A DNA stretch of 64,000 bases from Halobacteriales archaeon QS_6_64_34. Lineage in GTDB: Archaea > Halobacteriota > Halobacteria > Halobacteriales > Haloarculaceae. The DNA lies in NCBI GenBank assembly GCA_003020925.1, contig PXRT01000005.1:4052-68051 (forward strand). The letters run 5' to 3'. Made by a program: the position numbers and the translations under genes. This document shows, one piece after another, positions 29,902 through 49,620 of the stretch. Within the stretch, counting starts at the first letter, position 1. Each line of letters begins with the position of its first letter. The notes beneath the pieces are model-generated. The model was not told the origin of the DNA and did no database searches. It saw nothing but the letters and a program-made list of their open reading frames with translations.

Positions 29902-30423
29902 CTACCTGCGCTCGTCTATGTTCGCCCGGTCTTCGAGTTCCACGAGCTTTCGGTAGATGGGGGGACTGAGGATGCCGATGACGCCGAAGATGATGGCGAA
30001 CACGCCCAGCGGGAACTGCAGTTCGGGCGCGATGAAGCAGGGGTTCTCAGCGACGACCGTCGTGTAGTGGCGCTCACCCTCGTAGACGACGATTGACCCG
30101 TTGCGGATGCTGTCGCCGTTGGGGAACGCCCCCTCGACGCGGGCCTCGCCGATGGGGTCCGCAAGCGCTCCGTCGACGGCCGCCCGTTCGGCCTCGGAGA
30201 GGTTCTCGTAGTGGAGCCATGAGAGACCCTGTGGCTCGGAGTCGCCGAACCGCTGTTGGGTTTCCTCGGGCCCTTCGACGGCTATGGTGGGTGAGTCACA
30301 GGTGGTGATGTCCTCTTGAATAATGGCGTAGCCGCCGGGGACGGCGGCTCCGATGCCGACGGCCACCACCAGCACGCCGACAAAGGGCGCGACGTACGTA
30401 AAGAGAATCGACTCGTCGCTCAT
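29902..30423 (-). CDS. Hypothetical two-TM membrane protein
   Basis: Terminal TM helices, acidic central domain with two Cys; start directly follows coxA stop. Confidence 0.7.
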   Translation of the reverse strand: MSDESILFTYVAPFVGVLVVAVGIGAAVPGGYAIIQEDITTCDSPTIAVEGPEETQQRFGDSEPQGLSWLHYENLSEAERAAVDGALADPIGEARVEGAFPNGDSIRNGSIVVYEGERHYTTVVAENPCFIAPELQFPLGVFAIIFGVIGILSPPIYRKLVELEDRANIDERR

Positions 30424-30424
30424 C

Positions 30425-32692: not shown

Positions 32693-32861
32693 CGGCGAGC
32701 CGTCGTGAGAGCCGTAGTAGTCAGCGTTTCGGTCGGTGAAAGCATTACCCGAGTCTCACGGAGCCATCGGCATAAAACCACGCGACGCCGGCCGCGTACG
32801 AAGCGGACGCCCGGCGCTAACTGACCAAGCTATATGATACCCCCGTCGTTAGTTGTGGCCA

Positions 32862-33623
32862 ATGCGTCCCAGTCGCGCCCTCTCCTGGCTCTGCGTGTTC
32901 ACCCTCGGTGCAGTGGTGTGCAGCACGCCGGCGGCCGCCCAGTCGGTGAACCGGGCGGCCATTAACGAGTTGAACGAACAGCTGATGTACGTCGCACTGC
33001 CGCTGACGCTGTTCGTCGAACTGATGCTCGTCTACGCCATCTATCGGTTCCACAACAACGACGACCCTAGACCGACCGTCGACGACCCCGCACTGGAGGT
33101 CACCTGGACCGCCGCGACGGGTGCCATCCTCGTGTTCGTCGGCATCTCCGGCTTTTTCGTCCTGGCGAACCCCTACATCTCGCCAGCCTCGGCCGACTCG
33201 ACTGTCGAGGCGGGTGAAGGGATTGAAATCGACGTGCTGACCTACCAGTGGGGGTACGAATTTAGCTACGGCGACACGGGTGTCACCACCAGCGAGACGC
33301 TCTATCTCAGGAACGACACGGACGTCAGGTTCACGTTGCGGTCGACGGACGTGATACACTCCTTTTACATACCGGAACTGGGGCTGAAACAGGACATCTT
33401 CCCGAGCCAGGAGACGGTCGCACGGACCCACCCGACCGAGAACGGCACCCACCGGCTCTACTGTGCGGAGCTGTGTGGCTCGGGCCACGCTCGGATGCAG
33501 GCCCCGGTCGTCGTGCTGAACCAGTCCGAGTACGATGACTGGCTCGGGGAGCAACAGGAAGCCGGGACGAACAGTATGTCGACGCCCGACGCGAACGCGA
33601 CCGCAGGCGCGAACACCAATTGA
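32862..33623 (+). CDS. coxB: Cytochrome c oxidase subunit II
   Basis: LEVTWT, YQWGY, DVIHSF, CuA motif CAELCGSGHARM. Confidence 0.93.
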   Translation: MRPSRALSWLCVFTLGAVVCSTPAAAQSVNRAAINELNEQLMYVALPLTLFVELMLVYAIYRFHNNDDPRPTVDDPALEVTWTAATGAILVFVGISGFFVLANPYISPASADSTVEAGEGIEIDVLTYQWGYEFSYGDTGVTTSETLYLRNDTDVRFTLRSTDVIHSFYIPELGLKQDIFPSQETVARTHPTENGTHRLYCAELCGSGHARMQAPVVVLNQSEYDDWLGEQQEAGTNSMSTPDANATAGANTN

Positions 33624-33651
33624 TTTTATCGGGCACCGCTAACCCGCCCTC

Positions 33652-34209
33652 ATGTCAGACGTACGCGAGCGAGTGCCCGCACTCACCGGCCTGTTGACGG
33701 CCGTGTCGCTGGCGCTGGTGTTCGGTGCCGTCGGCGGCGCGATTCCGAGCACCGCGCTTCCCCGCGCCCCCGAATCAGTCATCGAAGCTATCCCGACGGT
33801 CAACGCCGTCATCAGCGCCGCCGCCATCGGGACCATCGTCGCCGGCGTCCGGGCGATTCGCCGGGGGAACGTCGAGCGCCACCGACGGCTGATGGTCACC
33901 ACCTTCGGCCTGTTCGTAGCGTTTCTCGTCCTCTATCTCTACCGCGTGACACTCGTTGGCCCGACAGAGTTTGGCGGCCCGGCCGCCGTCGAGACGTACG
34001 TCTACTTCCCGCTGCTCGCGGTGCATATCCTCCTTGCCATCGTCGCTATCCCCGCCGTCTACTACACGCTCCTGCTGGCAGTGAGCCACCCCGTCTCGGA
34101 ACTCCGCGAGACGAACCACCCGCGAGCGGGGAAGGTAGCCGCGACGCTGTGGCTGGTGTCGTTCACGCTCGGTATCGTCGTCTACGCGATGTTGTATCTC
34201 CTGTGGTGA
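33652..34209 (+). CDS. DUF420 family membrane protein
   Basis: HRRLM, AVHILLA, HPRAGK, WLVS..LGIVVY. Confidence 0.85.
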   Translation: MSDVRERVPALTGLLTAVSLALVFGAVGGAIPSTALPRAPESVIEAIPTVNAVISAAAIGTIVAGVRAIRRGNVERHRRLMVTTFGLFVAFLVLYLYRVTLVGPTEFGGPAAVETYVYFPLLAVHILLAIVAIPAVYYTLLLAVSHPVSELRETNHPRAGKVAATLWLVSFTLGIVVYAMLYLLW

Positions 34210-34242
34210 GCGAGCGGAGAGAAACGACCGTTTGGACCCTCG

Positions 34243-35685
34243 CTAGTCGTCTGCGGGACTTGGCTGCCCACTAATCTCGGGCCGGTGGACGTCGCGGTCG
34301 GTCTCCTCGCCCTCGATGTCGTAGGGGTACTCGCCGGTGACACAGCCGAGACAGAGGTCGGCCCGGCTGGAATCCAGCGTCGCGGCGATGGCGTCGATGG
34401 AGAGATACGACAGCGAGTCGGCGCCGATTTCCTCGCAAATCTCCTCGACGGGCTGGTCACCCGCGATGAGTTCGTCGCGGGAGGCCATGTCGATGCCCAT
34501 GTAACAGGGGGCGATGATGGGCGGGGCGCCGATGCGGACGTTGACCTCCTCGGCACCGGCGTCCTTGAGTAGCTGGACGAGCTGGTTCGAGGTCGTCCCG
34601 CGGACGATGGAGTCGTCGATGATGGTGACTTTCTTCCCCTCGATGGTCGACCTGATAGGGTTGAGTTTCAGCCGGACGGCGCGTTCGCGCTCGTCCTGTG
34701 TCGGCATGATAAAGGTTCGACCGACGTACCGGTTTTTCATCAGCCCCTCGGCGAACTCGATATCGGAGCCGTCGTCCTGTGCGGCCTCCGCGTAGCCAGA
34801 GGCGAAGGCGCGCCCGGAGTCGGGCACCGGGAGGACGACGTCGGATTCGACGCCCGATTCCTCCCAGAGCTTGCGGCCCAGTTCCCGCCGGACCTCGTAG
34901 ACGAGGTTGCCGTCGATGGTGGAGTCCGGGCGAGCGAAGTAGACGTGTTCGAAAAAGCAGTGGGCCGTGTTCTCCTGTTCGATGAGCTGGTAGGTGTCAT
35001 AGCCGGTGCCGTCGTCGTGGAGCACGACGAGTTCCCCGGGGCGGACGTCCCGGATGAGTTCCCCGTCGAGCGTGTCGATGGCCGCCGACTCCGACGTGAT
35101 GACGTAGCCGTCTTCCAGTTCGCCGATGACGAGCGGGCGGTTACCCTGCGGGTCCCGGACGCCCATCACGGTCTCGTCGTGCATGATGGTCAGCGAATAG
35201 GAGCCGTGGATTCGCTCCATCGTCCGCTTGACAGCGCGGACGAGGTCTTCCTCCAGCAGATTGCGGGCGAGGTCGTGAGCGATGACCTCGGTGTCGCCGT
35301 CGGAGGTAAAGGCGTGGCCCAGGTCGGCCAGCTCGTCGCCGATTTCGTCGGCGTTGACGAGGTTGCCGTTGTGGGAGAGCCCGAGTGACCCCGATTTGAA
35401 CGAGACCGAAAACGGTTGGGCACAGCAGGTGTTGACGCTGCCGGCCGTCGGGTACCTGACGTGACCGATGCCGTTCGAGCCGTTTAGCGATTCGAGGTCA
35501 CCGGGGGCGAAGGCGTCGCCGACCAGCCCCATTTCGACGTGGCTGTGCTGCTGGAAGCCGTCGTGGGTGACGATACCGGCTGACTCCTGACCGCGATGCT
35601 GGAGAGCGTACAGAGAGTAGTAGAGCGGGCGGGCGGCGTCTCGGTCTTCGAGTGCGATGCCAACAACGCCGCACTTCTCGTGCAT
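34243..35685 (-). CDS. purF: Amidophosphoribosyltransferase
   Basis: EKCGV, QHRGQE, DDSIVRGTT. Confidence 0.95.
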   Translation of the reverse strand: MHEKCGVVGIALEDRDAARPLYYSLYALQHRGQESAGIVTHDGFQQHSHVEMGLVGDAFAPGDLESLNGSNGIGHVRYPTAGSVNTCCAQPFSVSFKSGSLGLSHNGNLVNADEIGDELADLGHAFTSDGDTEVIAHDLARNLLEEDLVRAVKRTMERIHGSYSLTIMHDETVMGVRDPQGNRPLVIGELEDGYVITSESAAIDTLDGELIRDVRPGELVVLHDDGTGYDTYQLIEQENTAHCFFEHVYFARPDSTIDGNLVYEVRRELGRKLWEESGVESDVVLPVPDSGRAFASGYAEAAQDDGSDIEFAEGLMKNRYVGRTFIMPTQDERERAVRLKLNPIRSTIEGKKVTIIDDSIVRGTTSNQLVQLLKDAGAEEVNVRIGAPPIIAPCYMGIDMASRDELIAGDQPVEEICEEIGADSLSYLSIDAIAATLDSSRADLCLGCVTGEYPYDIEGEETDRDVHRPEISGQPSPADD

Positions 35686-35694
35686 GGTGATGGG

Positions 35695-35868
35695 TTATTC
35701 GCCGGCTTTCGACTGCCACTCGTAGTCACGTCGTTTCGCCGATTTGCCGAAGCCACACGACGAGCAGACCTTCTTTTTGGTGTGATACGATTTGCTTCCA
35801 CACCGGCGACATTTCGTGTGTGTCGTGGTGTTTTTCTTGCCCTGGCTCGGGGTTCCTGCACCAGTCAT
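35695..35868 (-). CDS. rpl37e: 50S ribosomal protein L37e (not in ORF track)
   Basis: [24 protein letters not shown]...CSSCGFG. Confidence 0.95.
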
Positions 35869-36047
35869 GGGTTGATTGATACGACGTTATCGCCGCGTAT
35901 AATCGTTGTGTCTTCGTCTTCGATTACGAGATTCATGTGTTGGTCGTAGCCGGTCAGCTCGCCCTCGAAAACCTCGCCGTCCTTGAGCTGTACGGTGACG
36001 GCTTCGCCGAGTGACGCTTCGAGTACGTCCAGCGGTCGTCCACTCAT
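35865..36047 (-). CDS. lsm: Lsm (SmAP) protein
   Basis: [21 protein letters not shown]; overlaps the rpl37e start. Confidence 0.95.
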
Positions 36048-36121
36048 GTAGGATTGGCATCGTGACGGGCGCTTAAACGTACCGCTTGGCGACCGGAATT
36101 GGTCACTCGTCGAACAGGCCG

Positions 36122-37186
36122 CTACGCCGGCCCGCTGTCGACACTGTTGCCCCCGACGAGTTCCGGCAGCACCAGCCGGGCGAAGTGATAGATAACCACG
36201 AGCAGGAACGGCCCGAGGAACAGGCCGTACCAGCCAAACAGCAGCGGGCCGATAACGTACGCTATCATGACGAGCCCGACGTGGAGGTTCCGCCCGGAGA
36301 CATATGGCCTGAGCACGAGGTCGGGGATGAAATCGATGAAGAGGACGGTGGCGACGATGAAGACCACCGGGAACCACAGCGGGTCCCCGCCCAGAATCGC
36401 TCGCGCGAACAGCCCGATAGCGAGCGGGACGTAGACGAGTTTCATCCCGACGACGGGGATGAGGCTCGCGGCACCGGCCAGGACGGCCAGCAGCGCGGGG
36501 TAGGGGATGCCGTCGGCCGGCGAGAGTGCGTTGAGGGTGATGTAGACGAACGCGGCGACGATGATGATGGCGAAGGCGTTGAGGATGTTGCCGAAGTAGA
36601 CGCTCCCGAGGTCCTCATCGACCACTTCGAGGTAGTCGCTCAGGAACCCCTCCTGGTCGTGAAACGTCCGTCGGACCCAGTCGCTCAGCCGGGGGCCATC
36701 ACGGAGCAGGTAGAACGCGACGGCGAGGGCCAGAAAGAGGTGGATGAGCGCGGTGCCGATGATTGGAACGTACCCCAGCGCCCCCTCTACGATGAGCTGG
36801 CCTGCGTTGACGATATCCGGATTCTGCAGCAGCGTCTGTGGGTTCTGGAACGTCCCGGAGACGTCCAGGTACGGCCCGAGCTGGTCAGTCAGTGGGCCGA
36901 GGTCGACGGTCTCCTGGAGCTGTGCAAGCTCCTGGGCCGCGATGGCGAGGGTGTACCCCACGAGCAGGACCACCGGCACGGCGAGTGCGAGCAGGGCCGT
37001 CGCGGCCGCGACGTTGGGCCCGAACTTCTTTCTGAACCGCCGGTAGGCCGGGCGTGCCACGTAGTAGAGAAACAGTCCGAGAATGAACGTCCCGATGTAC
37101 ACGAACAGTATCCAGGCGGTGATAGCACCCAACACGGCGGCCACTAACCACCACGCGACCCGGCTTCTGGAGTCGGGCCACTCCAT
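36122..37186 (-). CDS. AI-2E family transporter
   Basis: FYLLRDG, LIPVVG, LRPY, GLFLGP. Confidence 0.88.
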   Translation of the reverse strand: MEWPDSRSRVAWWLVAAVLGAITAWILFVYIGTFILGLFLYYVARPAYRRFRKKFGPNVAAATALLALAVPVVLLVGYTLAIAAQELAQLQETVDLGPLTDQLGPYLDVSGTFQNPQTLLQNPDIVNAGQLIVEGALGYVPIIGTALIHLFLALAVAFYLLRDGPRLSDWVRRTFHDQEGFLSDYLEVVDEDLGSVYFGNILNAFAIIIVAAFVYITLNALSPADGIPYPALLAVLAGAASLIPVVGMKLVYVPLAIGLFARAILGGDPLWFPVVFIVATVLFIDFIPDLVLRPYVSGRNLHVGLVMIAYVIGPLLFGWYGLFLGPFLLVVIYHFARLVLPELVGGNSVDSGPA

Positions 37187-37329
37187 ACTATCGGCGGTGC
37201 CCCCGATTGGGCGAGTTCGGGCACACGATAGGCTGACCGTGAGAGGAGCGCATACCGCACCTATCGGCTCCAATCGGTTGGTTAGACGGCGGTTATCGGG
37301 GGGCGGCTGTGGTAAGGTCGGACTGTGGA

Positions 37330-38388
37330 CTATACGCCGACGGCGAACGGTGCGTGGTCGTCTACACTGGCGGCAAAGCCGGCCAGCAGGTCCGCCAGGG
37401 CGTCGAGGTCGCCCTCGTCGATGACCTCGACCGGCGTATGCATGTACCGGTTCGGAAGGCCGACGTTGACTGACGGAACACCCCCACGGGATGTGTAGAA
37501 CGCGTCGGCGTCGGTGCCCGTCCGGATGCCGGTCGCCTGTAGCTGTACGTCGATGTCGTCGTCCTCGCCGGTCGCCCGCAGCGCCTCGACGACCACCGGA
37601 TGGTTGGTGCTGCCCCGTGAAACCACCGGGCCCTCGCCCAGTTCCACGCCGGTCGAGCGCTTGCCCGGGGAGTCCGGCGAGTCCGTCGCGTGGGTCACGT
37701 CGGCGGCGATTGCCACGTCCGGGTCGAGGTCGAAACCGACCATCTTCGCCCCCTGGAGGCCGACCTCCTCCTGGACGGTGGAGACGGCATGGACCGTGGC
37801 CTCGACGCCGTTTTCGGCGGCCCGGCGAAGCGCCTCGGCAGCCGCCCAGATGCCGATGCGGTTGTCCATTCCGCGGGCCGAGAGCCGCCCGTTCTCGAGT
37901 TCCGTGACGGTCTGCTGGAACGTGATTGGGTCGCCCCGGTCGACCGAGTCGGCGAGTTCGTCGCCGTCGGTCGCGCCCACGTCGACGTGTTGCTCCGAGA
38001 CGTCCGGGACGCCGTCGTCGTCGCCCTCCCGTAGGTGGATTGCGGTCTGACCGACGACGCCGGCGACGGGGCCGTCGGCGGTGTGAATCGTGACGTGCTG
38101 GCCCCGGGAGACGGTCTTGTCAGAGCCGCCGATACGACCTATGCGGACGAAGCCGTCGTCGGTCAGGTCGCGCACGATGAAGCCGATTTCGTCGCCGTGG
38201 CCGGCCAGCGCGACGTCGGTGTCGTTCCCCGAGAGCGTCGCGACGGCGTTGCCGTAGTCGTCGGTGCGGACCTCGTCTGCGAACTCGCCCACGTAGTCGA
38301 CCCACACCCGCTGGCTGTTCGCTTCGTAGCCGGACGGGCCGGGCGTCGAGAGCAACTCCTCCAGGAACTGTCGTCGTCGGTCGTCCAT
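37330..38388 (-). CDS. M42 family metallopeptidase
   Basis: GHGDEIG, MDNR, QEEVG, YMHTP. Confidence 0.92.
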   Translation of the reverse strand: MDDRRRQFLEELLSTPGPSGYEANSQRVWVDYVGEFADEVRTDDYGNAVATLSGNDTDVALAGHGDEIGFIVRDLTDDGFVRIGRIGGSDKTVSRGQHVTIHTADGPVAGVVGQTAIHLREGDDDGVPDVSEQHVDVGATDGDELADSVDRGDPITFQQTVTELENGRLSARGMDNRIGIWAAAEALRRAAENGVEATVHAVSTVQEEVGLQGAKMVGFDLDPDVAIAADVTHATDSPDSPGKRSTGVELGEGPVVSRGSTNHPVVVEALRATGEDDDIDVQLQATGIRTGTDADAFYTSRGGVPSVNVGLPNRYMHTPVEVIDEGDLDALADLLAGFAASVDDHAPFAVGV

Positions 38389-38490
38389 ACCCCGCTTTGG
38401 CCATCGTCCGTCATGAATAGCCGGGGTTATATAACTGTTACAGAATACAGTACCTATAAGTAGTTACCAGTAGTAAACAGTAACATCAAG

Positions 38491-39117
38491 ATGTCGCGGT
38501 CGTACTCGATTGGCGAGTTCGCGGATGAACTCGGTGTTCACGTCCAGACCATCAAACGCTGGTGTCGCAACGACAATCTCGATTATACCCGAACACCAGG
38601 TGGTGAACGACGGATTCCAAACCGAGAACTCCGCCGACTCGCGGGCGACACTCGGCCAACAGATCGTGTTGCTCTCTACGGTCGTGTGTCCAGTCACGGT
38701 CAGAAAGACAACGGCGACCTTGACCGCCAACTTGACCGACTCACAAACTATGCTCACGATCATGGCTGGAGCGTCGAAAACACTTACACGGACGTTGGCA
38801 GTGGTCTGAACGAAGACCGCCGTGGTCTCGACTCACTCCTTGATGATGTGCAAGAAGCCGACTACGGACGCATTCTCGTCACCTACGAGGACAGACTCAC
38901 CCGCTTTGGATTCTCGTATCTTGAACGGTATTTCGACTGCTACGGTGTCACCATCACCGTCATCGAAGACGAGACGGACAAATCAGCACAGGAAGAACTC
39001 GTTGATGACCTCATCAAGCTCGTCGCCAGTTTCAGCGGTAAACTCTATGGCATGCGCTCCTCGAAAAAACAACAGGTCATCAACACCGTCGAATCAGAGG
39101 TGAAACCCGATGAGTGA
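38491..39117 (+). CDS. tnpA: IS607 serine-recombinase transposase
   Basis: N-terminal MerR-like HTH, YGRVSS, DRLTRFGF, ELVDDL..FSGKLYG. Confidence 0.93.
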   Translation: MSRSYSIGEFADELGVHVQTIKRWCRNDNLDYTRTPGGERRIPNRELRRLAGDTRPTDRVALYGRVSSHGQKDNGDLDRQLDRLTNYAHDHGWSVENTYTDVGSGLNEDRRGLDSLLDDVQEADYGRILVTYEDRLTRFGFSYLERYFDCYGVTITVIEDETDKSAQEELVDDLIKLVASFSGKLYGMRSSKKQQVINTVESEVKPDE

Positions 39118-40882
39118 CCACCTCTCGCTTCCTATCCGTTTGCCAGACGAGGACAAAAAACGATTCGAGCGACTGGCAACACTCTCCCGTCGTGTCGCCA
39201 ACCACGCCCTTGAAGACCACTGGACGCCAGTCCATCTGGACGGCATTGCCGACGCATCGCATCAGGCGTGGAAGCACTTCGATGAACACGAACCGTTCGA
39301 GCAACTTGACCTGTACCTGCCCTCTCGGTTTCGGCGCTGTGTCTTGCAGAAAGTCGGTGAAACCCTCCGCAGTCACGCCGACCGCCGAGACGCCTTTCAG
39401 TCCATCCAGAGCATGTTGCCCAACCACAAAATCCGACGTATTCACCGCCGTCGTATCAAAGAACGACTCTGGAGCGACGGCGACTATCTCTCATCGGGTT
39501 ACGTGGATATTCTCATCGACCAACTCAACAGCTACTACGACCGCCACGGCACGTATCCAGACACGTATTTCGAGATGCAAGACTGTCCCGAGTATGAAAG
39601 CGGTGTACTGCCGTTCTCTGCTGACGACGGGCCAACCAGCGGGCAAGCCGTCAACTACCAGTACGACGGCGATAGCGAGACGCTGACCATCCGACTCAAG
39701 ACGCCAGACAGACTTTCACCGGAGACACGGGGCGATTGGTCGTGGACAGAATACGAGCGTAGCGGCTATGAATCGTTTCACGACCTACTTTCCCACGGTG
39801 ATCTCTCAGCTCCCGAGTTCCAACCCTCCCGTCGCAAAAGTGGTGATACCTACTACGAACTGTCGTTCCCCGTCGAAGTCGAACACGCAGAGGGGACTGA
39901 CGGCACCGGCCGCGTACTGGCACTTGACGCCGGAATGCGGAAGGAGATGACTGCTGTGGTGGTGACTGACGATGGCGAGCAACTATCCACACCACATTTC
40001 ATCCAGTTCACCGAACGTGACGGGATGCGACGACTCCACCGCGAACGTACCCGCCTGAACGACCGCCTTGCCGCGTTGCGCCGTGACGGGCGCGCCCATA
40101 CTGACGAGTTCGCCCACATCCACAGTGAGTACGAGCGAGCGAACAGCAAACTCCAGCACAAGCGCGAGCAATTAACACACGACGTAGCCAACCAAGTCCT
40201 CGCACTCGCACTCCTGTACGACGTAGACGCCATCGTTCACGAGGATTTGCGGTCACTTTCACCACCGCGTGGCGAAGGCACGTTGTCGTGGGAGTTGTCA
40301 TCGTGGGCACGACGGGACATCATCGAGAACATCGAATATCGGGCAGAAAGTGCTGGTGTCGCTGTCGAGCGAGTGTACCCGAAGGGGACGAGTCGGTCGT
40401 GTCCCCGGTGTGGTTCGACCGGCCATACCTGCAAGTCACCCGATCATCACCACGAACAGTGGTGGGGCGGGCACTTCCGGTGTGACAATGTCCGGTGTGG
40501 GTTCGAGGGCGACCGCGACTACATCGGGGCGCTGAACGTGGCTCGCGTATTCTTTAGCGAGACGGACGAGCTAGACTACGGTTTCACGTCCTCCTACACG
40601 GGGGATTCTGAAATCGTGCTAGCTCGCCGTTCCGCTGGTGAGCGAAGCGTCGCTTCGCGATCCACGTCAGAACTCGCTTCTGACGCTGGCACGCGGCTCA
40701 CGTTTGGAACTGGCATCGTCGCCTACAAACCAGAACAGGCAGCGGCGACCACTGGTGGTGGGTCGGCTGTCATAGCGCCCGCTGTCGCCGTGCCCGAGTC
40801 GAATGCGGATGGTAGTGATGGACGTGGCCCAGTCGTCCAGCAGTGTACCCGTTTCTTACGGCATACTACTGAAAGCTACTGA
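39110..40882 (+). CDS. tnpB: RNA-guided endonuclease TnpB (590 aa)
   Basis: RuvC I LALDAG, RuvC II VHEDL, Zn finger CPRC/CDNVRC, RuvC III DRDYIGALNV. Confidence 0.9.
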   Translation: MSDHLSLPIRLPDEDKKRFERLATLSRRVANHALEDHWTPVHLDGIADASHQAWKHFDEHEPFEQLDLYLPSRFRRCVLQKVGETLRSHADRRDAFQSIQSMLPNHKIRRIHRRRIKERLWSDGDYLSSGYVDILIDQLNSYYDRHGTYPDTYFEMQDCPEYESGVLPFSADDGPTSGQAVNYQYDGDSETLTIRLKTPDRLSPETRGDWSWTEYERSGYESFHDLLSHGDLSAPEFQPSRRKSGDTYYELSFPVEVEHAEGTDGTGRVLALDAGMRKEMTAVVVTDDGEQLSTPHFIQFTERDGMRRLHRERTRLNDRLAALRRDGRAHTDEFAHIHSEYERANSKLQHKREQLTHDVANQVLALALLYDVDAIVHEDLRSLSPPRGEGTLSWELSSWARRDIIENIEYRAESAGVAVERVYPKGTSRSCPRCGSTGHTCKSPDHHHEQWWGGHFRCDNVRCGFEGDRDYIGALNVARVFFSETDELDYGFTSSYTGDSEIVLARRSAGERSVASRSTSELASDAGTRLTFGTGIVAYKPEQAAATTGGGSAVIAPAVAVPESNADGSDGRGPVVQQCTRFLRHTTESY

Positions 40883-40932
40883 AATTGGAACGGTAGCACA
40901 ACGCCTAAGAGTCGAGCGCGTGATGTGTCAGT

Positions 40933-41163
40933 ATGGTAGACATTACGCTCTTCGAACTGCACCTCGACGGCTCCGAGTTCACGGCGAACGCCCCCGGCAT
41001 CGGTAAGAGCGACGAAGAAGGCGACGAAAGCGACTCCGGCAACGCCCCGCTGGGGCTGGTCGCCGGCCTGGTGCTGGTCGTGTTCGTGGTCATCGCGGTG
41101 GTCGCCGTAAAGAAACGGGGCGGCAGCGACGGCGGGGAGTCCCCGCTGGACGACGCGGAGTGA
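40933..41163 (+). CDS. Small single-TM hypothetical protein
   Basis: ITLFELHL..ANAP pattern, TM followed by KKR. Confidence 0.75.
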   Translation: MVDITLFELHLDGSEFTANAPGIGKSDEEGDESDSGNAPLGLVAGLVLVVFVVIAVVAVKKRGGSDGGESPLDDAE

Positions 41164-41223
41164 TACTGGCGCCAGTTTGCCCCTCGGGAGAAGGCCTATC
41201 ACGCCCCGCACCGTTTCCCGCAT

Positions 41224-42174
41224 ATGGGACTGTATCACAGCGTCCGCGCCGTCGCCGGAGCGACGGGCGACGGACCGATAGACTGGACGGCGGTCGCCGA
41301 GGCCGCAAAGGAGTCGACGGACCCCGGCGACCTCACGCTCTCGGCGGCGGAGACGGAGGGGTACACGACGGACGTCCGCGACGCCCGGGACCGGGTTCGC
41401 GAGGTCAGCGAACTCGATTTCGACCTCCCGGAGACGGTCGAGATTCAGAACCGACACCACTGGATAGACGCCAACGTCGCCACCTTCGAGCGCGTGATGG
41501 CGCCAATCGAACAGCAGGCCGAGTACATCCCTGGAGTCGCCCGGGCCATAAACACCGGCTCGATGGCCTTCGCGCTCTCCTTCCTTGGCAACAACGTCCT
41601 CGGGCAGTACGACCCCCTCTTGCTCGCTGACAACGACGACCACGCGCTGTACTTCGTCCGGCCGAACATCCAGCGCGTCGCCGGCCAGCTCGGCGTCGAG
41701 GACGACCGATTCCGCCGCTGGATAGCCTTCCACGAGGTGACCCACGCCGCCGAGTTCGGGGCCGCGCCGTGGCTCTCCGAGTACATGGAGGAGACGATGG
41801 AGGAGACCGTCGAGAAGCTCTCAAGCGGGGAACTCGACCGCTCCTCGCTTGGCGAACTCGACACGACGATGACCGCCGTCGAGGGGTACGCGGAACTGCT
41901 GATGGACCGCGCCTTCGACGACGAGTACGACGACCTCCGACGGAAAGTCGACGAGCGCCGACAGGGCCGTGGCCCGGTCGCCAAACTCGTCCGCCGGTTC
42001 CTCGGCCTCGGGATGAAACGCCAGCAGTACGAGCGGGGCAAGGCCTTCTTCGACGAGGTGGCCGACGCTCGTGGCGTCGCCACAGCGGGGCGGGTCTGGG
42101 ACTCCCCCGAGACGCTGCCGACCGACAAGGAGATAGCGACGCCGCGGCTGTGGGTCGAGCGCGTGCTGGACTGA
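41224..42174 (+). CDS. Zincin metalloprotease (DUF2342-like)
   Basis: LGQYDP, HEVTH, EGYAE, KRQQYERG. Confidence 0.88.
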   Translation: MGLYHSVRAVAGATGDGPIDWTAVAEAAKESTDPGDLTLSAAETEGYTTDVRDARDRVREVSELDFDLPETVEIQNRHHWIDANVATFERVMAPIEQQAEYIPGVARAINTGSMAFALSFLGNNVLGQYDPLLLADNDDHALYFVRPNIQRVAGQLGVEDDRFRRWIAFHEVTHAAEFGAAPWLSEYMEETMEETVEKLSSGELDRSSLGELDTTMTAVEGYAELLMDRAFDDEYDDLRRKVDERRQGRGPVAKLVRRFLGLGMKRQQYERGKAFFDEVADARGVATAGRVWDSPETLPTDKEIATPRLWVERVLD

Positions 42175-42179
42175 GCCTC

Positions 42180-42503
42180 CTACCGCTGTCGGTTCCCGCC
42201 CGTCGCCTGTTCGTCCCGATTCTCGGTTCGCTCCCGGCGTTCCTGCATTCGCTGTCCGGGCTTGGGGCCGCGCTCCCGGTCGTCCTCGTAAGGCGTCTCG
42301 GCGATGCTGTCGGGAAACGTTAACTCCGCGAGCGCGCCGCCGACGAGCGCGCCGCCGACACCGGCGCCGACTGCGACCAGCGGGCCGCTGGCACCCCACA
42401 GGGCCACCAGTGCCATCGAGAGCCCCACCAGCAGGGCGAAACCCACTTTCAGTCGGACCAGGAACTTCTCGCGGTCTTCCTTCGTAACCGAGGGACCGAC
42501 CAT
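42180..42503 (-). CDS. Hypothetical two-TM protein
   Basis: MVGPS...RLKVGFALLVGLS; ATG 42503. Confidence 0.7.
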   Translation of the reverse strand: MVGPSVTKEDREKFLVRLKVGFALLVGLSMALVALWGASGPLVAVGAGVGGALVGGALAELTFPDSIAETPYEDDRERGPKPGQRMQERRERTENRDEQATGGNRQR

Positions 42504-42690
42504 CAGCGGGCACCCATCAGTAGAACCCCCGGTCGGTCGTACTCCATCGGGCCGTAGGCCGGCGAGTCCATCGCATCGAGCATGTCCGCCGTTGGACCCG
42601 GGCCAGAATGAACCCATCGGTCCAGGGGATTGATTACGGTGCCCGGCCGAGTGAGACGTAGCTGCGACAGTCGAGACAGGGGGTCTATGC

Positions 42691-44556
42691 GTGGCCACGA
42701 CAGACGGTGATAGCGACGATATCGGCGTCGACAGCGCCCAGCTCCTCCTCGTCTGCATCTGCATCGCCGGGCTGGTCGTGGCGGCCTTCCTCGCGCCCGT
42801 CGTCGGGGCGAACAATCTCGTCGCCCCAGGTGGCAACGGTAGCTTGGAAGAGCAACAGGACCGCCAGCCCACTGACCCCGAGCCGGCCGATACCCCAAAG
42901 ACTGTTGCCGAACGGGGAGAGAACGGCGAGCGTGACCCCGGCAGTGAGTTCGAACCCGGTGGCGGTGTCGCCGCCGGGGAGTACAGCGGTTGTTTCGTCT
43001 TCGTCGAACCCGAGCCCACACCGGGCCAGGATACCAGCGTGCTGGTCACCGTCGGTGGCGAGGCGGCGGCCGACGTCCCGGTCTGGTTCAACGGCGACTT
43101 CGTCGGCCACACGTCCGAGGACGGCACCGTAATCGGAACTGTCCCCTTCGTGACTGACCTGCACGTCACGGTGACCTCGCCCACGGAGGAACCCTGTCGG
43201 TTCTCCCGACAGGACCCAGCGGCGGTCGAGGGGGCCGGCCTCGTCGGGGCGGGTACAGTAGTCAGCGCGGCGTCAGCTACGGGTGCAGTCGCTGCCGGCG
43301 GGATATCGGCGCGTGCGCGGGAGAGCCCGCCGCCGCGCCGCCAGCAGGGCGACGCCAAGGGGGTGAACAACTCCACTCAGTACGACGTCGCGAACGACGT
43401 CAGTATCCGCGTCAGGGGCGACCCAATCCCTGGGGAGACCGTCACGCTCCGGGCGACGGTCGCAGGGGCTCCGATGCCCGACGCGACCGTGACCGTCGAC
43501 GGCACGCGGGTGGGCCGGACGGACGCGAACGGCCGCTACGCGCTGACGGTGCCCGACCGGGACAGCGTCGCGGTGACGGTCAGTCGCGGCGAGATTAGCG
43601 GCAACACGACCGTCGACGTCCTCGAGCTGTCGGTACGCTTCGTCCCGCGACTGGTCGTGCCCGGCGAACGCGCGACAGTCGCGGTGACCCGGGGCGGCGA
43701 GCCGGTCGGGAACGCGACGGTGGCTCTCGACGGAGCCACGCTGGGGACCACCGGTCAGAGCGGCACTGTCGCCGTCGCCCTGCCGCGCTCGGTGGGCGGG
43801 ACGGTGAGGGCCACCGCCGGTCCGCAGTCGGCCGCCGTCCCGCTGTGGCTGGCCTACTGGCTCACCGCCGCGATGACGCTGCTGCTCGCGTTTCTCACGG
43901 CCCTCACGACGGCGATAGCGGCCGGCATGGGCGGTCGCGGGCCCGCAAAGCGGGTCGCGTTCGTCTGGGGTGGCGTCTGGGCGCTGTTCGTCGGCTACGT
44001 CGTCGGTGAACATCTCGGACTGGGCGTTACAGCAGCCGCTGTCGTACTCCTCGCGCTGTACCGCTACCGCCGGGCCGTCGTCTCGGGCGGCGCGACGACC
44101 GCCGGGCTGATTGCGGGGTTCATCGAGTGGTGTAGCCGTGCCGTGCTATGGGTCGTCGGCGCCGTTGAGACGCTGGCTGACTGGGGCCGGGCGGGGGTCG
44201 GCCGCCTGGCAGCGTGGGTCCGGTGGCTCCGGGGCCGAGAGCCGGAGGTGTCGGAGAGCGAGGGTACTGCCGGCCCCGCGACGGGGTCGCCATCGGACCC
44301 GACCGCGCCGACGCTACGGCAGCTCTGGCGCCGGCTCGCGAGCCGGGTGTTTCCGGGAACGTGGCGGACCAGAACGCCCGCCGAGGTGTCCCGGGCGGCC
44401 ATCGAACGGGGGCTCCCGCGCGGGCCGGTCGAGACACTGACCGAGGCGTTCCGCGACGTCGAGTACGGCGGCCACGCCGAGGCGAGCCGGCAGTCCCGGG
44501 CCGAGGCGGCATACGACGCACTCGAGTATCATCGCGACGAGGAGGACGGAGAATGA
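42691..44556 (+). CDS. Membrane protein with Ig-like repeats and C-terminal DUF4129
   Basis: Repeated ATVTVDG..VG.T..G units; TPAEVSRAAI..LTEAFRDVEYG. Confidence 0.8.
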   Translation: MATTDGDSDDIGVDSAQLLLVCICIAGLVVAAFLAPVVGANNLVAPGGNGSLEEQQDRQPTDPEPADTPKTVAERGENGERDPGSEFEPGGGVAAGEYSGCFVFVEPEPTPGQDTSVLVTVGGEAAADVPVWFNGDFVGHTSEDGTVIGTVPFVTDLHVTVTSPTEEPCRFSRQDPAAVEGAGLVGAGTVVSAASATGAVAAGGISARARESPPPRRQQGDAKGVNNSTQYDVANDVSIRVRGDPIPGETVTLRATVAGAPMPDATVTVDGTRVGRTDANGRYALTVPDRDSVAVTVSRGEISGNTTVDVLELSVRFVPRLVVPGERATVAVTRGGEPVGNATVALDGATLGTTGQSGTVAVALPRSVGGTVRATAGPQSAAVPLWLAYWLTAAMTLLLAFLTALTTAIAAGMGGRGPAKRVAFVWGGVWALFVGYVVGEHLGLGVTAAAVVLLALYRYRRAVVSGGATTAGLIAGFIEWCSRAVLWVVGAVETLADWGRAGVGRLAAWVRWLRGREPEVSESEGTAGPATGSPSDPTAPTLRQLWRRLASRVFPGTWRTRTPAEVSRAAIERGLPRGPVETLTEAFRDVEYGGHAEASRQSRAEAAYDALEYHRDEEDGE

Positions 44557-45353
44557 GACGGGTCGCACTGTTGCTCGTCGGCCTCGGTACGGCGCTGGTG
44601 GGGCTCGGGGCGGGATTCGGCCTGCTGGCCGACGAGCCCGCTGCGGGAGTGCCCGGCTGGATGGCCGCCCTCGCCGGGCTGGTCGTGTTCGTCCTGGCGC
44701 TCTGGAAGCTCGTCCGTTCGCCCGGCGGCGACGGGGTTGCACCCGCTCCCTGGAGCGAGGGCGGAGCCATCGTCAGCGACCCGCCCGAGGGGACGCCCAA
44801 GACGGACCCCATCTCGGGGACCGCGCTGTCCGATGTCGTCGAAGCGGCCGCGAGCGAGGCCCGGGAAGAGACCGTCGAAGCGGGGCTGGCGACGGTCCGG
44901 GGACCCCTCAGAGAGACGCTCGTCGCGGCGCTGGAACGGGGCGGCTGGGACCGCGCCCGAATCGAGTCGGCGCTGGCCGACGGCTCCTGGACCGACGACC
45001 CCGTCGCCGCAGCCGTCGTCGACGAGACCGTGGTTCCGCCGGAACGGCCGCTCCGTCGACGCGTCTGGGCCTGGCTTTTCCCCGGGAAGGCCGTCCGCCA
45101 CCGCACCGCTCGCGCCGTCGGGGCAGTGGCCAGAGCCGCCGAGGCGGCGCTCCCGCCTGTCGTCGGCCAGCGGGCGCCACGCCCGATTCCGGTCGTCGAA
45201 CCGACCCTCGATGACCTCCAGCGGGCCGCCGACGGGAGCTTGCGACGCGCCGTCGAGGGGTCGGCCTCGGTGGGTGCCCCGGAGTACGAGAACGACGACC
45301 CCGAAGACGCCCAGTCCCAGTCAGTCGGGTGGCCGTCGGGAGGGACCGACTGA
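44553..45353 (+). CDS. Membrane protein (DUF7269-like)
   Basis: Two N-terminal TM helices, GSWTDDPVAAA. Confidence 0.75.
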   Translation: MRRVALLLVGLGTALVGLGAGFGLLADEPAAGVPGWMAALAGLVVFVLALWKLVRSPGGDGVAPAPWSEGGAIVSDPPEGTPKTDPISGTALSDVVEAAASEAREETVEAGLATVRGPLRETLVAALERGGWDRARIESALADGSWTDDPVAAAVVDETVVPPERPLRRRVWAWLFPGKAVRHRTARAVGAVARAAEAALPPVVGQRAPRPIPVVEPTLDDLQRAADGSLRRAVEGSASVGAPEYENDDPEDAQSQSVGWPSGGTD

Positions 45354-46660
45354 TGGCCCGACGAGTTCGCTGGCGCGGGGCGGTCGTCGCGACAGTGCTG
45401 CTCGGATTCGTCGGCGGCATCGAGGGGAACGGAACCGTGCTGCTGGCTGGGACGATTCCGCTGGCCTACGTGGCCTACGGGGCCCTCTCGACGGCGTCGG
45501 TGCCCGAAACCCTCACCGTCACGCGACAGGTCGACCCCCGCGTCGCGCCGCCGGGCCGTCCGGTAACGGTCACGCTCTCGGTGACGAACGACGGCGACCG
45601 GACGCTGTCGGACCTCCGCGTCGTCGACCCCGTTCCCGAGGCGCTGGCCGTCCTCCAGGGAACGCCGAGAGGCGGGGGGACGCTCGAACCCGGTGAGACG
45701 ATGACCGTCTCCTACACCGTAGTCGCCCGGCGCGGCGAGTTCGACTTCCCCGCGCCACGCGTCCGGGTCCGGGGCGCCGGGGCCGGGGCCGTGGCGACGG
45801 CCGACCGGACGCCGGCCGGTGAGACACGGCTCATCTGCCGGCTGGACGCCGACGCGCCGCCGCTGTCCGATATCGGTGACACCCGCGTCGGTCGGCTCAC
45901 GGCGGACTCGCCCGGCGAGGGTCTCACCTTCCACTCGACGCGGGAGTACCGCCACGGCGACCCCGCCGGCCGCATCGACTGGCGCGGCTACGCCAAGCAG
46001 GGCGAACTCGCGACCGTCAACTACGACCGTCAGCTCTCGGCGACGGTCGTGTTCGTTCTGGACGCCCGCAAAGCGGCGCGGGTCGCTGCGGGGCCGGGCC
46101 GCCCGACGGCGGTCGAACTCGGCGCCTACGCGGCGACGCGGTCGCTCAACACGCTGCTTGGCGCCGGCCACGGGGTCGCCGTGGCCGTCGTCGGCGTCGA
46201 CGGTGACGGGCCGGGCGGGCTGATGTGGCTGGCGCCCGGCAGCGGGAGCGAACAGCGCTCGCGGGCCATCGCGGCACTGGGCGATGCCCTCGACGCGGCG
46301 CCGGCGACCGAGCGCGACCCCACGCGGCAGGCGAGAAAAATCGGCGGGTTAGTCGACCGGGACGCACAGTTCGTCCTCGTCTCGCCGCTGCTCGATGACG
46401 TACCGGTCGCGATGGTCGAGCAGTGGTCCGCGTTCGGCGGGTCCAGAACGGTTCTCTCGCCCGATATCGTGGCCTCGAACACGGTCAGTGGCCAGTACGA
46501 GCAGGTTCGCCGACGGACCCGCCTGGCCCGCTGCCAGGCCGGCGGCGCCCGAACCATCGACTGGCGGCGCGGGAGCCCGCTCCCGGCGATTCTGGAAGCG
46601 ACCTTCGCCGTCGAGGCCCACCGGGCTGGCGGGGGCGTCCGCGCCGGAGGTGGCGGCTGA
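45353..46660 (+). CDS. DUF58 domain protein
   Basis: FHSTREYRHGDPAGRIDWR, VLDAR. Confidence 0.88.
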   Translation: MARRVRWRGAVVATVLLGFVGGIEGNGTVLLAGTIPLAYVAYGALSTASVPETLTVTRQVDPRVAPPGRPVTVTLSVTNDGDRTLSDLRVVDPVPEALAVLQGTPRGGGTLEPGETMTVSYTVVARRGEFDFPAPRVRVRGAGAGAVATADRTPAGETRLICRLDADAPPLSDIGDTRVGRLTADSPGEGLTFHSTREYRHGDPAGRIDWRGYAKQGELATVNYDRQLSATVVFVLDARKAARVAAGPGRPTAVELGAYAATRSLNTLLGAGHGVAVAVVGVDGDGPGGLMWLAPGSGSEQRSRAIAALGDALDAAPATERDPTRQARKIGGLVDRDAQFVLVSPLLDDVPVAMVEQWSAFGGSRTVLSPDIVASNTVSGQYEQVRRRTRLARCQAGGARTIDWRRGSPLPAILEATFAVEAHRAGGGVRAGGGG

Positions 46661-48106
46661 ATGGCCATCGGCGGGACGCGCCTGGACACGCCCTCCGCCG
46701 TCGGTGACGAGGGCCGACCCCGTGGGGCCAGCCTGACCGTCGTCGCCGTGGTCGCCGTTGCGGTGCTTGCCGCCGCCGGCTTCCTCGTCGGCCAGCCCCT
46801 CGCGTTCACGACGTTCGCGCTGTTCGTCGGGCTGCTGTCGGCCGGGATGGCCCTGCTGTCCCGGGACCGGCTCCAGGCAACGGTGCTTGGCCACCTGCTC
46901 TTCCTGCCAGCGGCCGTCGTCCTGGCCGCGCTCGTGGGTGCGAGCGGGCTGGTCGCGTTTTCGAGCCCGGGGGTCGCCACGCTCGCCGTCGGCGGCCTGG
47001 TCGCCATGTTCGGGGTCACAGCGGGCTGGAACGACGTCCTCAACCGGTCGACGGTCACGACGACGCTCGTCCAGAGCGGGCTCTCGTACGTTTGCTTTCT
47101 CCTGTGGCTACTGGTCCTGACTACCGTCGTGGGGACTGGATTCCTGGGGTGGGAAATCGTGACTGACCTCACGCGAGGGGGTGGCCCGGTCGCCGCGTTT
47201 TTCGGCCTGTTTGGACTCCTCGGTTTCGCCACCGCCGGTCTCTACATCGCGGTGCGGGCGGTCCCGGCCATCGAGGTGACCCCGGTTCATCGGCGGCCTG
47301 ACGCGACAGCGCGGTACGGGCGACTCAAATCAGTACTGCTCCGTTCGACAGCGGCCGCGTGGGGGGTCGTCGCCCTCGGCATTGTCGGGCTGGTCGGCGG
47401 GTTGATTGGGCCGGTGCTGTCGCTCCCGGGTATCCGGGCGACGGTCGTCCCGGTGGCCCAGCTGACCGCGATACCACTCGCCTGTGTCGCGGTGCTGGCC
47501 CTGCTCGTCGCGGTTCTCGCTTGGACCGTCCGCCATGCGACGGCGGGCTTCGAGCGGCTGTCCACGCGAACGGTCGGCGCGGCCGTGGCAGCGGTCTCGT
47601 ACTCGCTCGCGTTGCTGGTCGCCATCCCTACCTTCCTCCGGCTGGGCTACGTCGGTGTCACCTTCCTCTTTTTCGTCCCGGTGCTCCCGCTGCTGGTTTA
47701 TGTCGGCCTCGTGGCCGTCCTGTTGGGCTTTTACACCGGTATCTTGCCCGGTCGGGCGGCCTCGGCTGCAGTTGTCGCGGCCGGCCTCGTCGCGATGGGA
47801 CTGGGCGGGGCGCTGGTCGGCTTCCCGTCGCTGTTCGTCTTCGGCGCGGTCACCGGCGCGCTCGTCGCCTGGGACGTGGGCACCTTCGGCCTGGGCGTGA
47901 CCGCCGAACTGGGCCACATCCCCGAGACCCGCCGGCTGGAGCTGTATCACGGCGTCGTCGCCGTCGGTATCGGCCTGCTCGCCGTCGCCGGCCTGACCGT
48001 GCTGGACCTCGCCCGGCGGTCGGTTGGCTCGGCGGTCGGCTCGCCGACGACGATGGGAATCGCCGTCCTCGGTGTGGTGCTGGTGGCCGTCGGGCTGCGC
48101 GGCTGA
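46661..48106 (+). CDS. Polytopic membrane protein (DUF7519-like C-terminus)
   Basis: Many TM helices; VAWDVG...ELG...ELYH. Confidence 0.72.
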   Translation: MAIGGTRLDTPSAVGDEGRPRGASLTVVAVVAVAVLAAAGFLVGQPLAFTTFALFVGLLSAGMALLSRDRLQATVLGHLLFLPAAVVLAALVGASGLVAFSSPGVATLAVGGLVAMFGVTAGWNDVLNRSTVTTTLVQSGLSYVCFLLWLLVLTTVVGTGFLGWEIVTDLTRGGGPVAAFFGLFGLLGFATAGLYIAVRAVPAIEVTPVHRRPDATARYGRLKSVLLRSTAAAWGVVALGIVGLVGGLIGPVLSLPGIRATVVPVAQLTAIPLACVAVLALLVAVLAWTVRHATAGFERLSTRTVGAAVAAVSYSLALLVAIPTFLRLGYVGVTFLFFVPVLPLLVYVGLVAVLLGFYTGILPGRAASAAVVAAGLVAMGLGGALVGFPSLFVFGAVTGALVAWDVGTFGLGVTAELGHIPETRRLELYHGVVAVGIGLLAVAGLTVLDLARRSVGSAVGSPTTMGIAVLGVVLVAVGLRG

Positions 48107-48168
48107 GGAACGCCTGGGTCGGCCAGGGGATGAAACACTTTCATGCCAGCAGGGCCCAAGTCACCGGT

Positions 48169-49182
48169 ATGGCCGAGCAATCCCTGACTCCCGAGGAAGC
48201 CGCCGGGCGGTGTCGGGACATCGTGGACCGGGTCGAGGAGGCCGTCGTCGTCGAGCGGCGAGTGCTGTACGAGACGCTCGCGGCCGTCATCGCCCGAGGT
48301 CACGTCCTCGTCGAGGACGTCCCGGGAACCGGCAAGACCGTTTTAGCCCGCGTCCTCGCGGAGTCGCTCGGACTCTCGTTTACGCGCATCCAGTTCACGC
48401 CGGACCTCCTGCCGGCCGACGTCACCGGCTCCAATATCTACAACGAACACGAGGGCCGCTTCGAGTTCGCCGAAGGGCCCGTCTTTACGAACGTCGCGCT
48501 GGCCGACGAGATAAACCGCGCCCCGCCGAAGACCCAGGCCGCCCTGCTGGAGTCGATGGAGGAGCGCCAGGTCAGCGTCGACGGGACGACCCACGACCTG
48601 CCAGAGCCCTTCGTCGTCATCGCCACGCAGAATCCGGTCGAACAGGACGGGACCTTCCGCCTGCCCGAGGCCCAGCGGGACCGCTTTGCCGTCAAGACCG
48701 CGATGGGGTATCCCGACGCCGACGGGGAGATGGACCTCCTGGCGATGCGGGACAACCGCCGGACGCTCGCGCCGAGCGTCGACCCGGTGGTGACCCCCGA
48801 GACGGTGCTTGCACTGCAGGAACTGGCCGAGGACATCCGCGTCGACGAGAAGGTGTGCCGCTACATCGTCGACCTCGCCCGGGCGACACGCGAGGACGAC
48901 CGCACGGAAATCGGCGTCTCCCCGCGCGGTGTCCAGCGGGTGTTCGAGGCGGTGCGGGCGAGCGCCGTCATCGACGGCCGCGAATACGCGACACCGGAAG
49001 ACGTAAAGCGGATGGCACAGGCGGCGATGAGTCACCGGCTCATCCTGACGACCGAAGCCACCGTCGAGAACGTCGACCCCGACGACGTCGTCCGGTCGGT
49101 GCTCGACAGCGTCGACGTCCCCGCCGTCTCGCCGGACGCCCCGTCGGCGACGGCAAACGGCGGGCCCGAAGAGCAGTCCTAA
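48169..49182 (+). CDS. moxR: MoxR family AAA+ ATPase
   Basis: EDVPGTGKT, RIQFTPDLLPAD, DEINRAPPKTQAALLE. Confidence 0.93.
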   Translation: MAEQSLTPEEAAGRCRDIVDRVEEAVVVERRVLYETLAAVIARGHVLVEDVPGTGKTVLARVLAESLGLSFTRIQFTPDLLPADVTGSNIYNEHEGRFEFAEGPVFTNVALADEINRAPPKTQAALLESMEERQVSVDGTTHDLPEPFVVIATQNPVEQDGTFRLPEAQRDRFAVKTAMGYPDADGEMDLLAMRDNRRTLAPSVDPVVTPETVLALQELAEDIRVDEKVCRYIVDLARATREDDRTEIGVSPRGVQRVFEAVRASAVIDGREYATPEDVKRMAQAAMSHRLILTTEATVENVDPDDVVRSVLDSVDVPAVSPDAPSATANGGPEEQS

Positions 49183-49213
49183 ACGGTTTCCCGTCGCCGT
49201 CCCAGACAGCGGT

Positions 49214-49579: not shown

Positions 49580-49620
49580 CCCCGCTGACCGACAGCGTTT
49601 TTCCGGTCCCTGTCGTTGCT

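Follow-up and report, generated by a model that had tools for sequence, protein, structure and literature searches.

CboIStron, an IS607 element of Clostridium botulinum, has a strict GG core, a TGGG target and target-adjacent motif (TAM), and an omegaRNA scaffold ending in ..UCGG. It avoids itself through the -3 position, where the right end reads TCGG instead of TGGG (10.1101/2023.11.20.567912). The IS607 TnpB of ISFba1 uses the G-rich TAMs AGGAG or GAGGG and a right-end RNA (reRNA) derived from RAGATH-18 (PMC11061315). The omegaRNA of ISDra2 derives from the 3' end of tnpB together with the right end, and this TnpB can process its own mRNA into omegaRNA (PMC8612924, PMC10278001). In Halobacterium salinarum, sense-overlapping transcripts (sotRNAs) in IS1341-type tnpB genes were first described as regulatory non-coding RNAs (PMC4615843) and are now regarded as omegaRNAs (PMC12558985). 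In the collection of papers that we searched, none dealt with this haloarchaeal IS607 TnpB family. Here, we describe an IS607-type element with an enlarged tnpB in a 64,000-nt stretch of contig PXRT01000005.1 from Halobacteriales archaeon QS_6_64_34 (hereafter the window). Coordinates are window positions, and features lie on the + strand unless stated otherwise.

The locus is very probably an autonomous IS607 element of a halite-community haloarchaeon, in which TnpB and an omegaRNA encoded within its gene form a homing system. As in CboIStron, a serine-recombinase tnpA lies upstream of tnpB, both junctions carry a GG core and the empty site is scarless. The G-rich TAM ends in the core in both (TGGG there, RGGG predicted here). 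In both elements the scaffold ends in ..CGG right before a flank-derived guide, and the right-end NCGG mimics the TAM and is broken at -3. Unlike CboIStron, the element has no group I intron, its TnpB is about 200 aa longer, its host is a halophilic archaeon, and its scaffold, which lies nearly all within the open reading frame (ORF), has no sequence or Rfam relationship to that of CboIStron.

The other systems share fewer features with this locus. ISFba1 also has an IS607 TnpB with a G-rich TAM and a multi-stem scaffold beside the guide, which in its reRNA includes pseudoknots, but its TnpB is shorter, at 387 aa, and its reRNA comes from non-coding sequence downstream. ISDra2 also draws its omegaRNA from the tnpB 3' end plus the right end. 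It differs in being an IS200/IS605 element with a Y1 transposase, single-strand transposition, a TTGAT TAM, a 408-aa TnpB and a much shorter ORF overlap. The H. salinarum sotRNAs (RF02656/RF02657) are likewise haloarchaeal sense-overlapping RNAs at the tnpB 3' end, but they sit in IS200/IS605 tnpB genes of ordinary size, and their Rfam models fail here at E <= 1.

A covarying structured RNA overlaps the 3' end of tnpB

A structured RNA of about 285-325 nt (40571/40609-40893) with at least seven helices overlaps the final ~100 codons of tnpB. We ran RNAalifold on an alignment (A2) of 47 sequences, the window copy and 46 other loci, over 40560-40894; locus L043 was excluded from the alignments. 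RNAalifold predicted 55 pairs, 14 of them compensatory. Adding the helices visible in the alignment gave a 74-pair model in which 97.3% of cells are paired across the 47 elements and 23 of the 74 pairs show double changes (234 cells). In 500 within-column shuffles these values were never reached (maxima of 91.2% paired, 21 pairs and 109 cells), and sliding the partners by 1-3 columns left 35-44% paired. A single-sequence fold has the same architecture (z = -3.3). An earlier reading of the window, made from its letters alone (the sequence-only reading), had placed the omegaRNA wholly inside the coding tail. Most of the scaffold does lie in the ORF, spanning codons ~488-590, but its last 11 nt (40883-40893) fall beyond the tnpB stop.

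The helix nearest the 5' end, P1 (40571..40622), is a three-part hairpin of 17 pairs that is 98% paired, with 5 pairs compensatory. P1 may form the 5' portion of the omegaRNA or may belong to the precursor mRNA alone. GCCGUUC (40626..40632) forms the 5' strand of a long-range closing helix and pairs with GAACGGU (40888-40894), the last 7 nt of the right end. Within this 3' strand, GAACGG (40888..40893) is the scaffold 3' end and holds the right GG core (40892-40893). The closing helix is 99.4% paired in the 47 sequences, appears in the single-sequence minimum-free-energy fold, and is similar to the pseudoknots found next to the guide in solved TnpB RNAs. A multibranch core (40694..40801; 91-99% paired, 7 pairs compensatory) consists of P2 (40694-99/40796-801), P3 (40702-07/40731-36) and P4a-c (40738-41/40791-94, 40743-49/40784-90 and 40757-64/40775-83, respectively). 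Hairpin P5 (GGACG/CGUCC, 40819..40839) has a conserved GGCCCAG loop and a stem that occurs as GGACG, GUGUC, GCAUC or GGGUG, with 4 of its 5 core pairs compensatory. The last hairpin, P6 (40842..40867), forms in the majority of 45 distinct homologue sequences, although its stem varies by clade (GUACCCG, CUCUC, GACUCG, UCCUC).

Three stems had been named from the letters, and two of them are confirmed, both with compensatory changes. The stem 40738-40749/40784-40794 corresponds to P4a/P4b, where one pair is CG in 26 sequences and UA in 21, and another is GC in 20 and UA in 17. The stem TGGACG (40819-24)/CGTCCA (40834-39) is P5. The third, an ACCAC-tg-GTGGT hairpin, does not hold up: its loop has 2 nt, it shows no compensatory change, its outer pair is broken in 18 of 47 sequences, and it competes with the covarying P4b and P4c. 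We also rejected a pairing of GTCGCC (40719-24) with GGCGAC (40744-49), since the second clade is unable to form it and 40744-49/40784-89 covaries.

Between the closing-helix strand and P2 lies a polymorphic in-frame insert of 51 nt, or 17 codons (40633..40683). It is flanked by CGCTGG repeats and forms hairpins at 40642-40658 and 40666-40684, with 5 pairs compensatory. The insert is present in 12 of the 47 homologues and is doubled in one (L016:4451-4837). Its occurrence in otherwise differing clades suggests repeated gain or loss, or exchange, of a frame-preserving RNA module. A pattern search of the window and genome found no further copy. A tie to a 51-bp hairpin-bearing in-frame duplication in the gene at 4871-4945 was rejected, as 4840-4980 showed no clear likeness and the pattern search was empty. 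Separately, the Halospeciosus flavus locus carries an additional insertion of ~110 nt within the P1 region of its tail (L043:4390-4500).

We scanned 38300-41100 with 4227 Rfam models at E <= 1. No model matched the tail, RAGATH-18 had no match at the locus, and the sole match was a chance S10-leader on the minus strand. The scanned library reportedly includes the haloarchaeal sotRNA families RF02656 and RF02657.

The tnpB tail is kept open under RNA constraint

The helix after RuvC III ends at about aa 482-493, and the ORF then continues to the TGA. This tail (aa 494-590 plus stop, 40589..40882) is an open frame that is predicted to be disordered and is overlapped by the scaffold. Of 47 copies, 45 keep this frame open as far as a stop that lies 7 or 13 nt short of the element end, while the other frames contain 1-9 stops. 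L025 has a premature stop in the tail, and L046 reads past the element end. The 47 lengths range from 285 to 387 nt and vary by multiples of 3 only; the window copy additionally lacks one base, downstream of the stop. Counted as independent events, the in-frame indels number about ten, which implies a tail that is translated or, failing that, under selection for an open frame.

An open frame of this kind would also be expected if the tail were a true protein domain with a function of its own, such as binding RNA or forming dimers, with nucleotide conservation a by-product and the stems incidental. Beyond the in-frame indels, this reading can draw on a tail ratio of non-synonymous to synonymous substitution rates (dN/dS) of about 0.5, below 1, and on some invariant residues. 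The pattern of constraint points the other way. Identity at codon positions 1/2/3 is ~0.82/0.87/0.52 in the body of the protein and ~0.75/0.76/0.65 in the tail. Compared with the body, synonymous sites of the tail are more constrained and non-synonymous sites less. Third-position identity peaks over the closing helix and P2, at 0.95 in 40610-33 and 0.86 in 40682-705, and third positions are 95% identical at 40626-40632, the closing-helix strand. Tail dN/dS is 0.48-0.57, against 0.12-0.16 in the body, because the synonymous rate halves and the non-synonymous rate rises. AlphaFold2 gives the tail (aa 494-590) a predicted local distance difference test score (pLDDT) of ~27 and no secondary structure, and the homology of distant relatives ends at about aa 480-500. 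Finally, the 23 pairs with compensatory double substitutions are unexpected from protein constraint. We therefore consider a functional protein domain quite improbable. The codon-position identities, dN/dS and pLDDT of the tail indicate that RNA structure is the main constraint, and the tail peptide is weakly constrained and, on the structure model, probably disordered.

A more speculative proposal, which we hold as possible though rather doubtful, is that translation of the tail is itself selected. Passage of the ribosome, or the disordered peptide, might tune the partition between mRNA and omegaRNA or aid RNA loading, and the 51-nt module might be a spreading, frame-preserving expansion segment.

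Element ends, core dinucleotide and predicted target site

Comparison with empty sites and the end of homology place the element, which is single-copy in the genome, at 38425..40894. Three same-genus genomes (L056, L057 and L060) carry the uninserted site, ..atccGGGG-T-agcgcaacc... This matches the window left flank GGGG (38423-38426) joined to the right flank T (40894) and agcacaacgcc. The insert measures 2467 bp, with ends ambiguous by the 3 nt of a GGT that is common to the two junctions (38425-27 and 40892-94). The same core dinucleotide, GG(T), is thus present at both junctions with no target duplication, as is characteristic of IS607 elements and has been demonstrated experimentally for CboIStron. 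The left GG core (38425-38426) forms the last two bases of the predicted TAM.

Across the family, we compared 54 loci, 53 of them fetched from representative genomes. Right-end homology breaks off sharply after ..AAATTGGAACGGT at 40894, and the flanks of all 46 other loci in the alignment are unrelated. In an alignment of 34 left ends, homology begins at a conserved GGGT, and the base before it is A or G. From these left ends, the empty sites and the analogy with CboIStron, we predict a TAM of RGGG, which is GGGG here (38423..38426); the G-rich TAM on the left flank proposed in the sequence-only reading was right in kind. Since the boundary falls inside the GGT that both junctions share (40892-40894), a guide would begin at 40894 (or 40895). 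The earlier proposal of a start near 40889 was 5 nt too far left, as judged from the boundary in 46 loci and the empty sites; AACGG is scaffold plus core dinucleotide rather than guide. The predicted guide (taken here as 40894..40913) begins UAGCACAACGCC..., derives from the flank and matches the uninserted target beside GGGG.

Short repeats lie just inside both ends. On the left, a subterminal inverted repeat with CAGTAG/CAGTAA half-sites (38459..38483) is 76% complementary to 40856-40880. On the right are the direct repeats CTACTG-N4-CTACTG (40866..40881). As had been noticed, the stop falls inside the right-end repeat: the TGA (40880-40882) begins within the second CTACTG (40876-40881), which includes part of it. 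The ends change together by clade, with CAGTAG becoming CAGCAG on the left where CTACTG becomes CTGCTG on the right. These repeats are likely TnpA binding sites.

This coupling raises the question of whether the RNA structure could serve transposition or regulation instead, as a right-end DNA or RNA signal for TnpA or as a cis-acting sense-overlapping RNA that controls tnpB. The repeats that co-vary in step at both ends do lie within the structured region (40856-40881), and haloarchaeal sotRNAs were first described as regulatory (PMC4615843). Serine recombinases, however, use short double-stranded sites, and the covarying helices extend more than 300 nt inward. The structure adjoins the exact boundary and its closing helix includes the last bases of the element, as in omegaRNA scaffolds; the catalytic residues of TnpB are intact; and the sotRNAs themselves are now regarded as omegaRNAs (PMC12558985). 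We consider a role limited to transposition or regulation very improbable, and continue to favor an omegaRNA scaffold.

The transposase gene, tnpA (38491..39117), overlaps tnpB by 8 nt and encodes a small serine recombinase of 208 aa with helix-turn-helix (HTH_17/MerR) and Pfam Resolvase (E 8.4e-23) domains. TnpA scores 231 bits against the NCBIfam transpos_IS607 equivalog NF033518 (cutoff 110, E 7.6e-69). Together with the GG core at both junctions, this confirms the IS607 assignment made from the sequence. A conserved TATAAGTA box (38455..38462) is near-invariant in the 34 left ends and lies ~30 nt upstream of the tnpA ATG. From general knowledge of haloarchaeal promoters, it is a putative archaeal promoter that would give a leaderless tnpA-tnpB transcript. 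In 36 of the 54 loci, tnpA is directly upstream of tnpB. Nine loci have no tnpA match in the fetched sequence (L020, L026, L027, L028, L032, L035, L036, L041 and L046); these tnpB-only, IS1341-like loci retain the full scaffold and right end.

TnpB keeps its RuvC and zinc-finger residues and belongs to a large family

The tnpB ORF (39110..40882, TGA stop at 40880-40882) encodes 590 aa. By AlphaFold2, Foldseek and dN/dS, aa 1-493 (39110..40588) form a folded body with WED/REC, RuvC I-III and a zinc finger. An intact RuvC triad and zinc finger had been read from the sequence, and both are conserved in an alignment of 50 sequences down to 23% identity. D273, E378 and D470 of the triad, C431 and C463 are invariant, and the other two zinc-finger cysteines, C434 and C458, show conservation of 90% or more. 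The Pfam TNB domain PF07282 (Cas12f1-like) matches at 53.8 bits (cutoff 26.3).

AlphaFold2, run with the 50-sequence alignment, gives a pLDDT mostly >83 for aa 1-493. The predicted fold matches TnpB, Cas12f and Fanzor, so that the structural comparison supports the sequence-based identification. The top Foldseek matches are Cas12f, ISFba1 TnpB and ISDra2 TnpB (E 6.5e-15 to 3e-9), along with Fanzor2. Template modeling (TM) scores by target are 0.57-0.64 for the best matches, AsCas12f and OsCas12f, 0.56 for ISDra2 TnpB (8h1j), 0.51 for ISFba1 TnpB (8iaz) and 0.49 for Fanzor2. Despite its likeness to type V-F effectors, the gene lies between transposon ends with a transposase, unlike Cas12f. The NCBIfam Cas12f2 model matches the RuvC half at 78.9 bits, far under its cutoff of 450, and no CRISPR array was found within 10 kb (30000-50000 scanned). 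By this score and the missing adjacent array, the gene does not qualify as a type V-F2 CRISPR effector.

The family contains at least 179 protein clusters in a search of 5.8 billion proteins. The 120 matches listed are full length, mostly 570-608 aa, and 63-92% identical; the named ones are all Halobacteria, and one carries the annotation 'IS1341-type transposase ISHgi6' (Haloferax gibbonsii). Cultured carriers of the family include, besides H. gibbonsii, Natronomonas aquatica F2-12, Halorubrum sp. PV6 and Natronorubrum bangense. With an exhaustive profile-free search we retrieved 834 relatives; many of them have 500-600 aa and align to query residues ~3-485 and not to the tail. Named members include Halorubrum, Methanosarcinales, Ammonifex and Ktedonobacterales, the last three at 28-37% identity. 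The proposed enlarged clade of ~500-600 aa is therefore real, but the relatives in Ammonifex and Ktedonobacterales show that it is not restricted to archaea. The same genome holds ten ordinary tnpB genes of 359-467 aa.

The element is present once in its own genome, a 2.2-Mb, 80%-complete metagenome-assembled genome (MAG), and a DNA search of this MAG found neither a second copy nor a solo omegaRNA element. This single copy, and an NCBIfam TnpB score under the cutoff, would fit a copy that is decaying or domesticated and encodes a TnpB unable to cut DNA, such as a guide-directed repressor of the TldR type. The invariant RuvC triad and zinc finger, the intact tnpA and ends, and the body dN/dS of 0.12-0.16 all speak against decay, as do copies at many different sites across the family, several per genome in some species. 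We regard a decaying or domesticated copy as extremely improbable; by its sequence, the element is complete and apparently functional.

Scaffold relatives are present in RNA libraries

In four RNA libraries, metatranscriptomes of halite and salt lakes that stem from three or more studies, short contigs (64-246 nt) fall on 40590-40882. In two of the libraries, contigs skip exactly 40633-40683, the 51-nt insert. These data are assembled contigs in which DNA carry-over is possible, from runs picked with the scaffold stretch itself, and they are weak evidence of expression; what they show is that relatives of the scaffold occur in RNA libraries. Almost no contig fell on tnpA or the tnpB body; as the runs were chosen by the tail stretch, this is no evidence of differential expression. 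Contig starts cluster at 40590-40609, but in contigs from RNA runs alone such starts cannot be taken as the 5' end of a mature omegaRNA. A promoter and terminator scan found neither near the scaffold start, with a sigma-70-type model that is uninformative for an archaeon.

Genomic setting

The element lies between divergent genes, an M42 glutamyl aminopeptidase (37330-38388, - strand) and a zincin-like metallopeptidase (41224-42174, + strand), with a 76-aa ORF between the element and the latter. It is ~35 nt upstream of the aminopeptidase start codon and may therefore affect that gene's promoter. One halite metagenome run contains 88% of sampled genome words and may be the sample of origin.

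Two related genomes, L058 (1360-1539) and L059 (1976-2150), carry an unrelated element of ~83 bp at the equivalent of window 38427/40894. It has 17-bp terminal inverted repeats (TATCGTAACAATTGAAA...) with TA at either side, and from its sequence looks like a miniature inverted-repeat transposable element (MITE) of the terminal-inverted-repeat type inserted in the TA of GGGGTAGC. An IS607 element and a MITE-like element at one intergenic spot therefore represent independent hits by two kinds of element.

Discussion

The comparisons above show the anatomy and boundaries of the element, its empty site, the covariation of the stems and the conserved frame. In its mechanism, the element most likely works like the IS607 homing system already published; that the RNA is transcribed or processed, and that cleavage and homing follow, we infer. 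TnpA would excise and insert the element as double-stranded DNA at the GG core of an RGGG(T) site, with no target duplication. The tnpA-tnpB transcript would be translated into the 590-aa TnpB, and its 3' ~290-325 nt (40571-40609 to 40893) would fold into an omegaRNA scaffold with seven or more helices. This scaffold would be closed by the long-range helix between GCCGUUC and the final right-end bases, and a guide taken from the flanking DNA from 40894 on would adjoin its 3' end. The function of this guide, like the TAM, is proposed by analogy. TnpB loaded with the RNA would recognize and cut the rejoined empty site, in which GGGG precedes the guide match, and recombination with an occupied copy after the cut would restore the element. 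The occupied site would escape cutting because AACGG stands in place of the TAM.

Several observations weigh against this interpretation. Much of the covariation distinguishes two or three clades, and because the 47 sequences are related, the shuffle statistics overstate their independence. The closing helix is nearly invariant and for that reason has no covariation support. The RNA evidence consists of assembled contigs, which do not define a discrete RNA, its ends or its level, and because no internal promoter was found, a processing route for the RNA has to be assumed. TnpB scores 83.4 against the NCBIfam guided_TnpB model, under its cutoff of 100, and is for this reason best described as a divergent member. 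Lastly, the MAG, 80% complete, holds a single copy, which gives no sign that the element was recently active in this genome.

An omegaRNA inside the gene is less novel than the sequence-only reading had claimed, because omegaRNAs of TnpB as a rule overlap the tnpB 3' end, as in ISDra2 and the Halobacterium sotRNAs. The extent of the overlap does stand out: what is unusual here is the length shared by RNA and ORF, together with strict conservation of the frame.

The locus leaves the current picture of IS607 element function unchanged. It defines a widespread haloarchaeal TnpB family at base resolution, with its ends, core, predicted RGGG TAM, guide start and a scaffold that has no Rfam model. 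Such a definition is a prerequisite for trying the system out as an RNA-guided nuclease in high salt, or for genetic work in Haloferax and Halobacterium. The extreme overlap of RNA and ORF, about 310 nt with in-frame indels up to whole hairpins, is useful for studies of how two codes share one sequence. If translation of the tail is indeed selected and the 51-nt module does spread, the family would serve as a natural model in which a guide-RNA system codes for protein and RNA over a long shared stretch.

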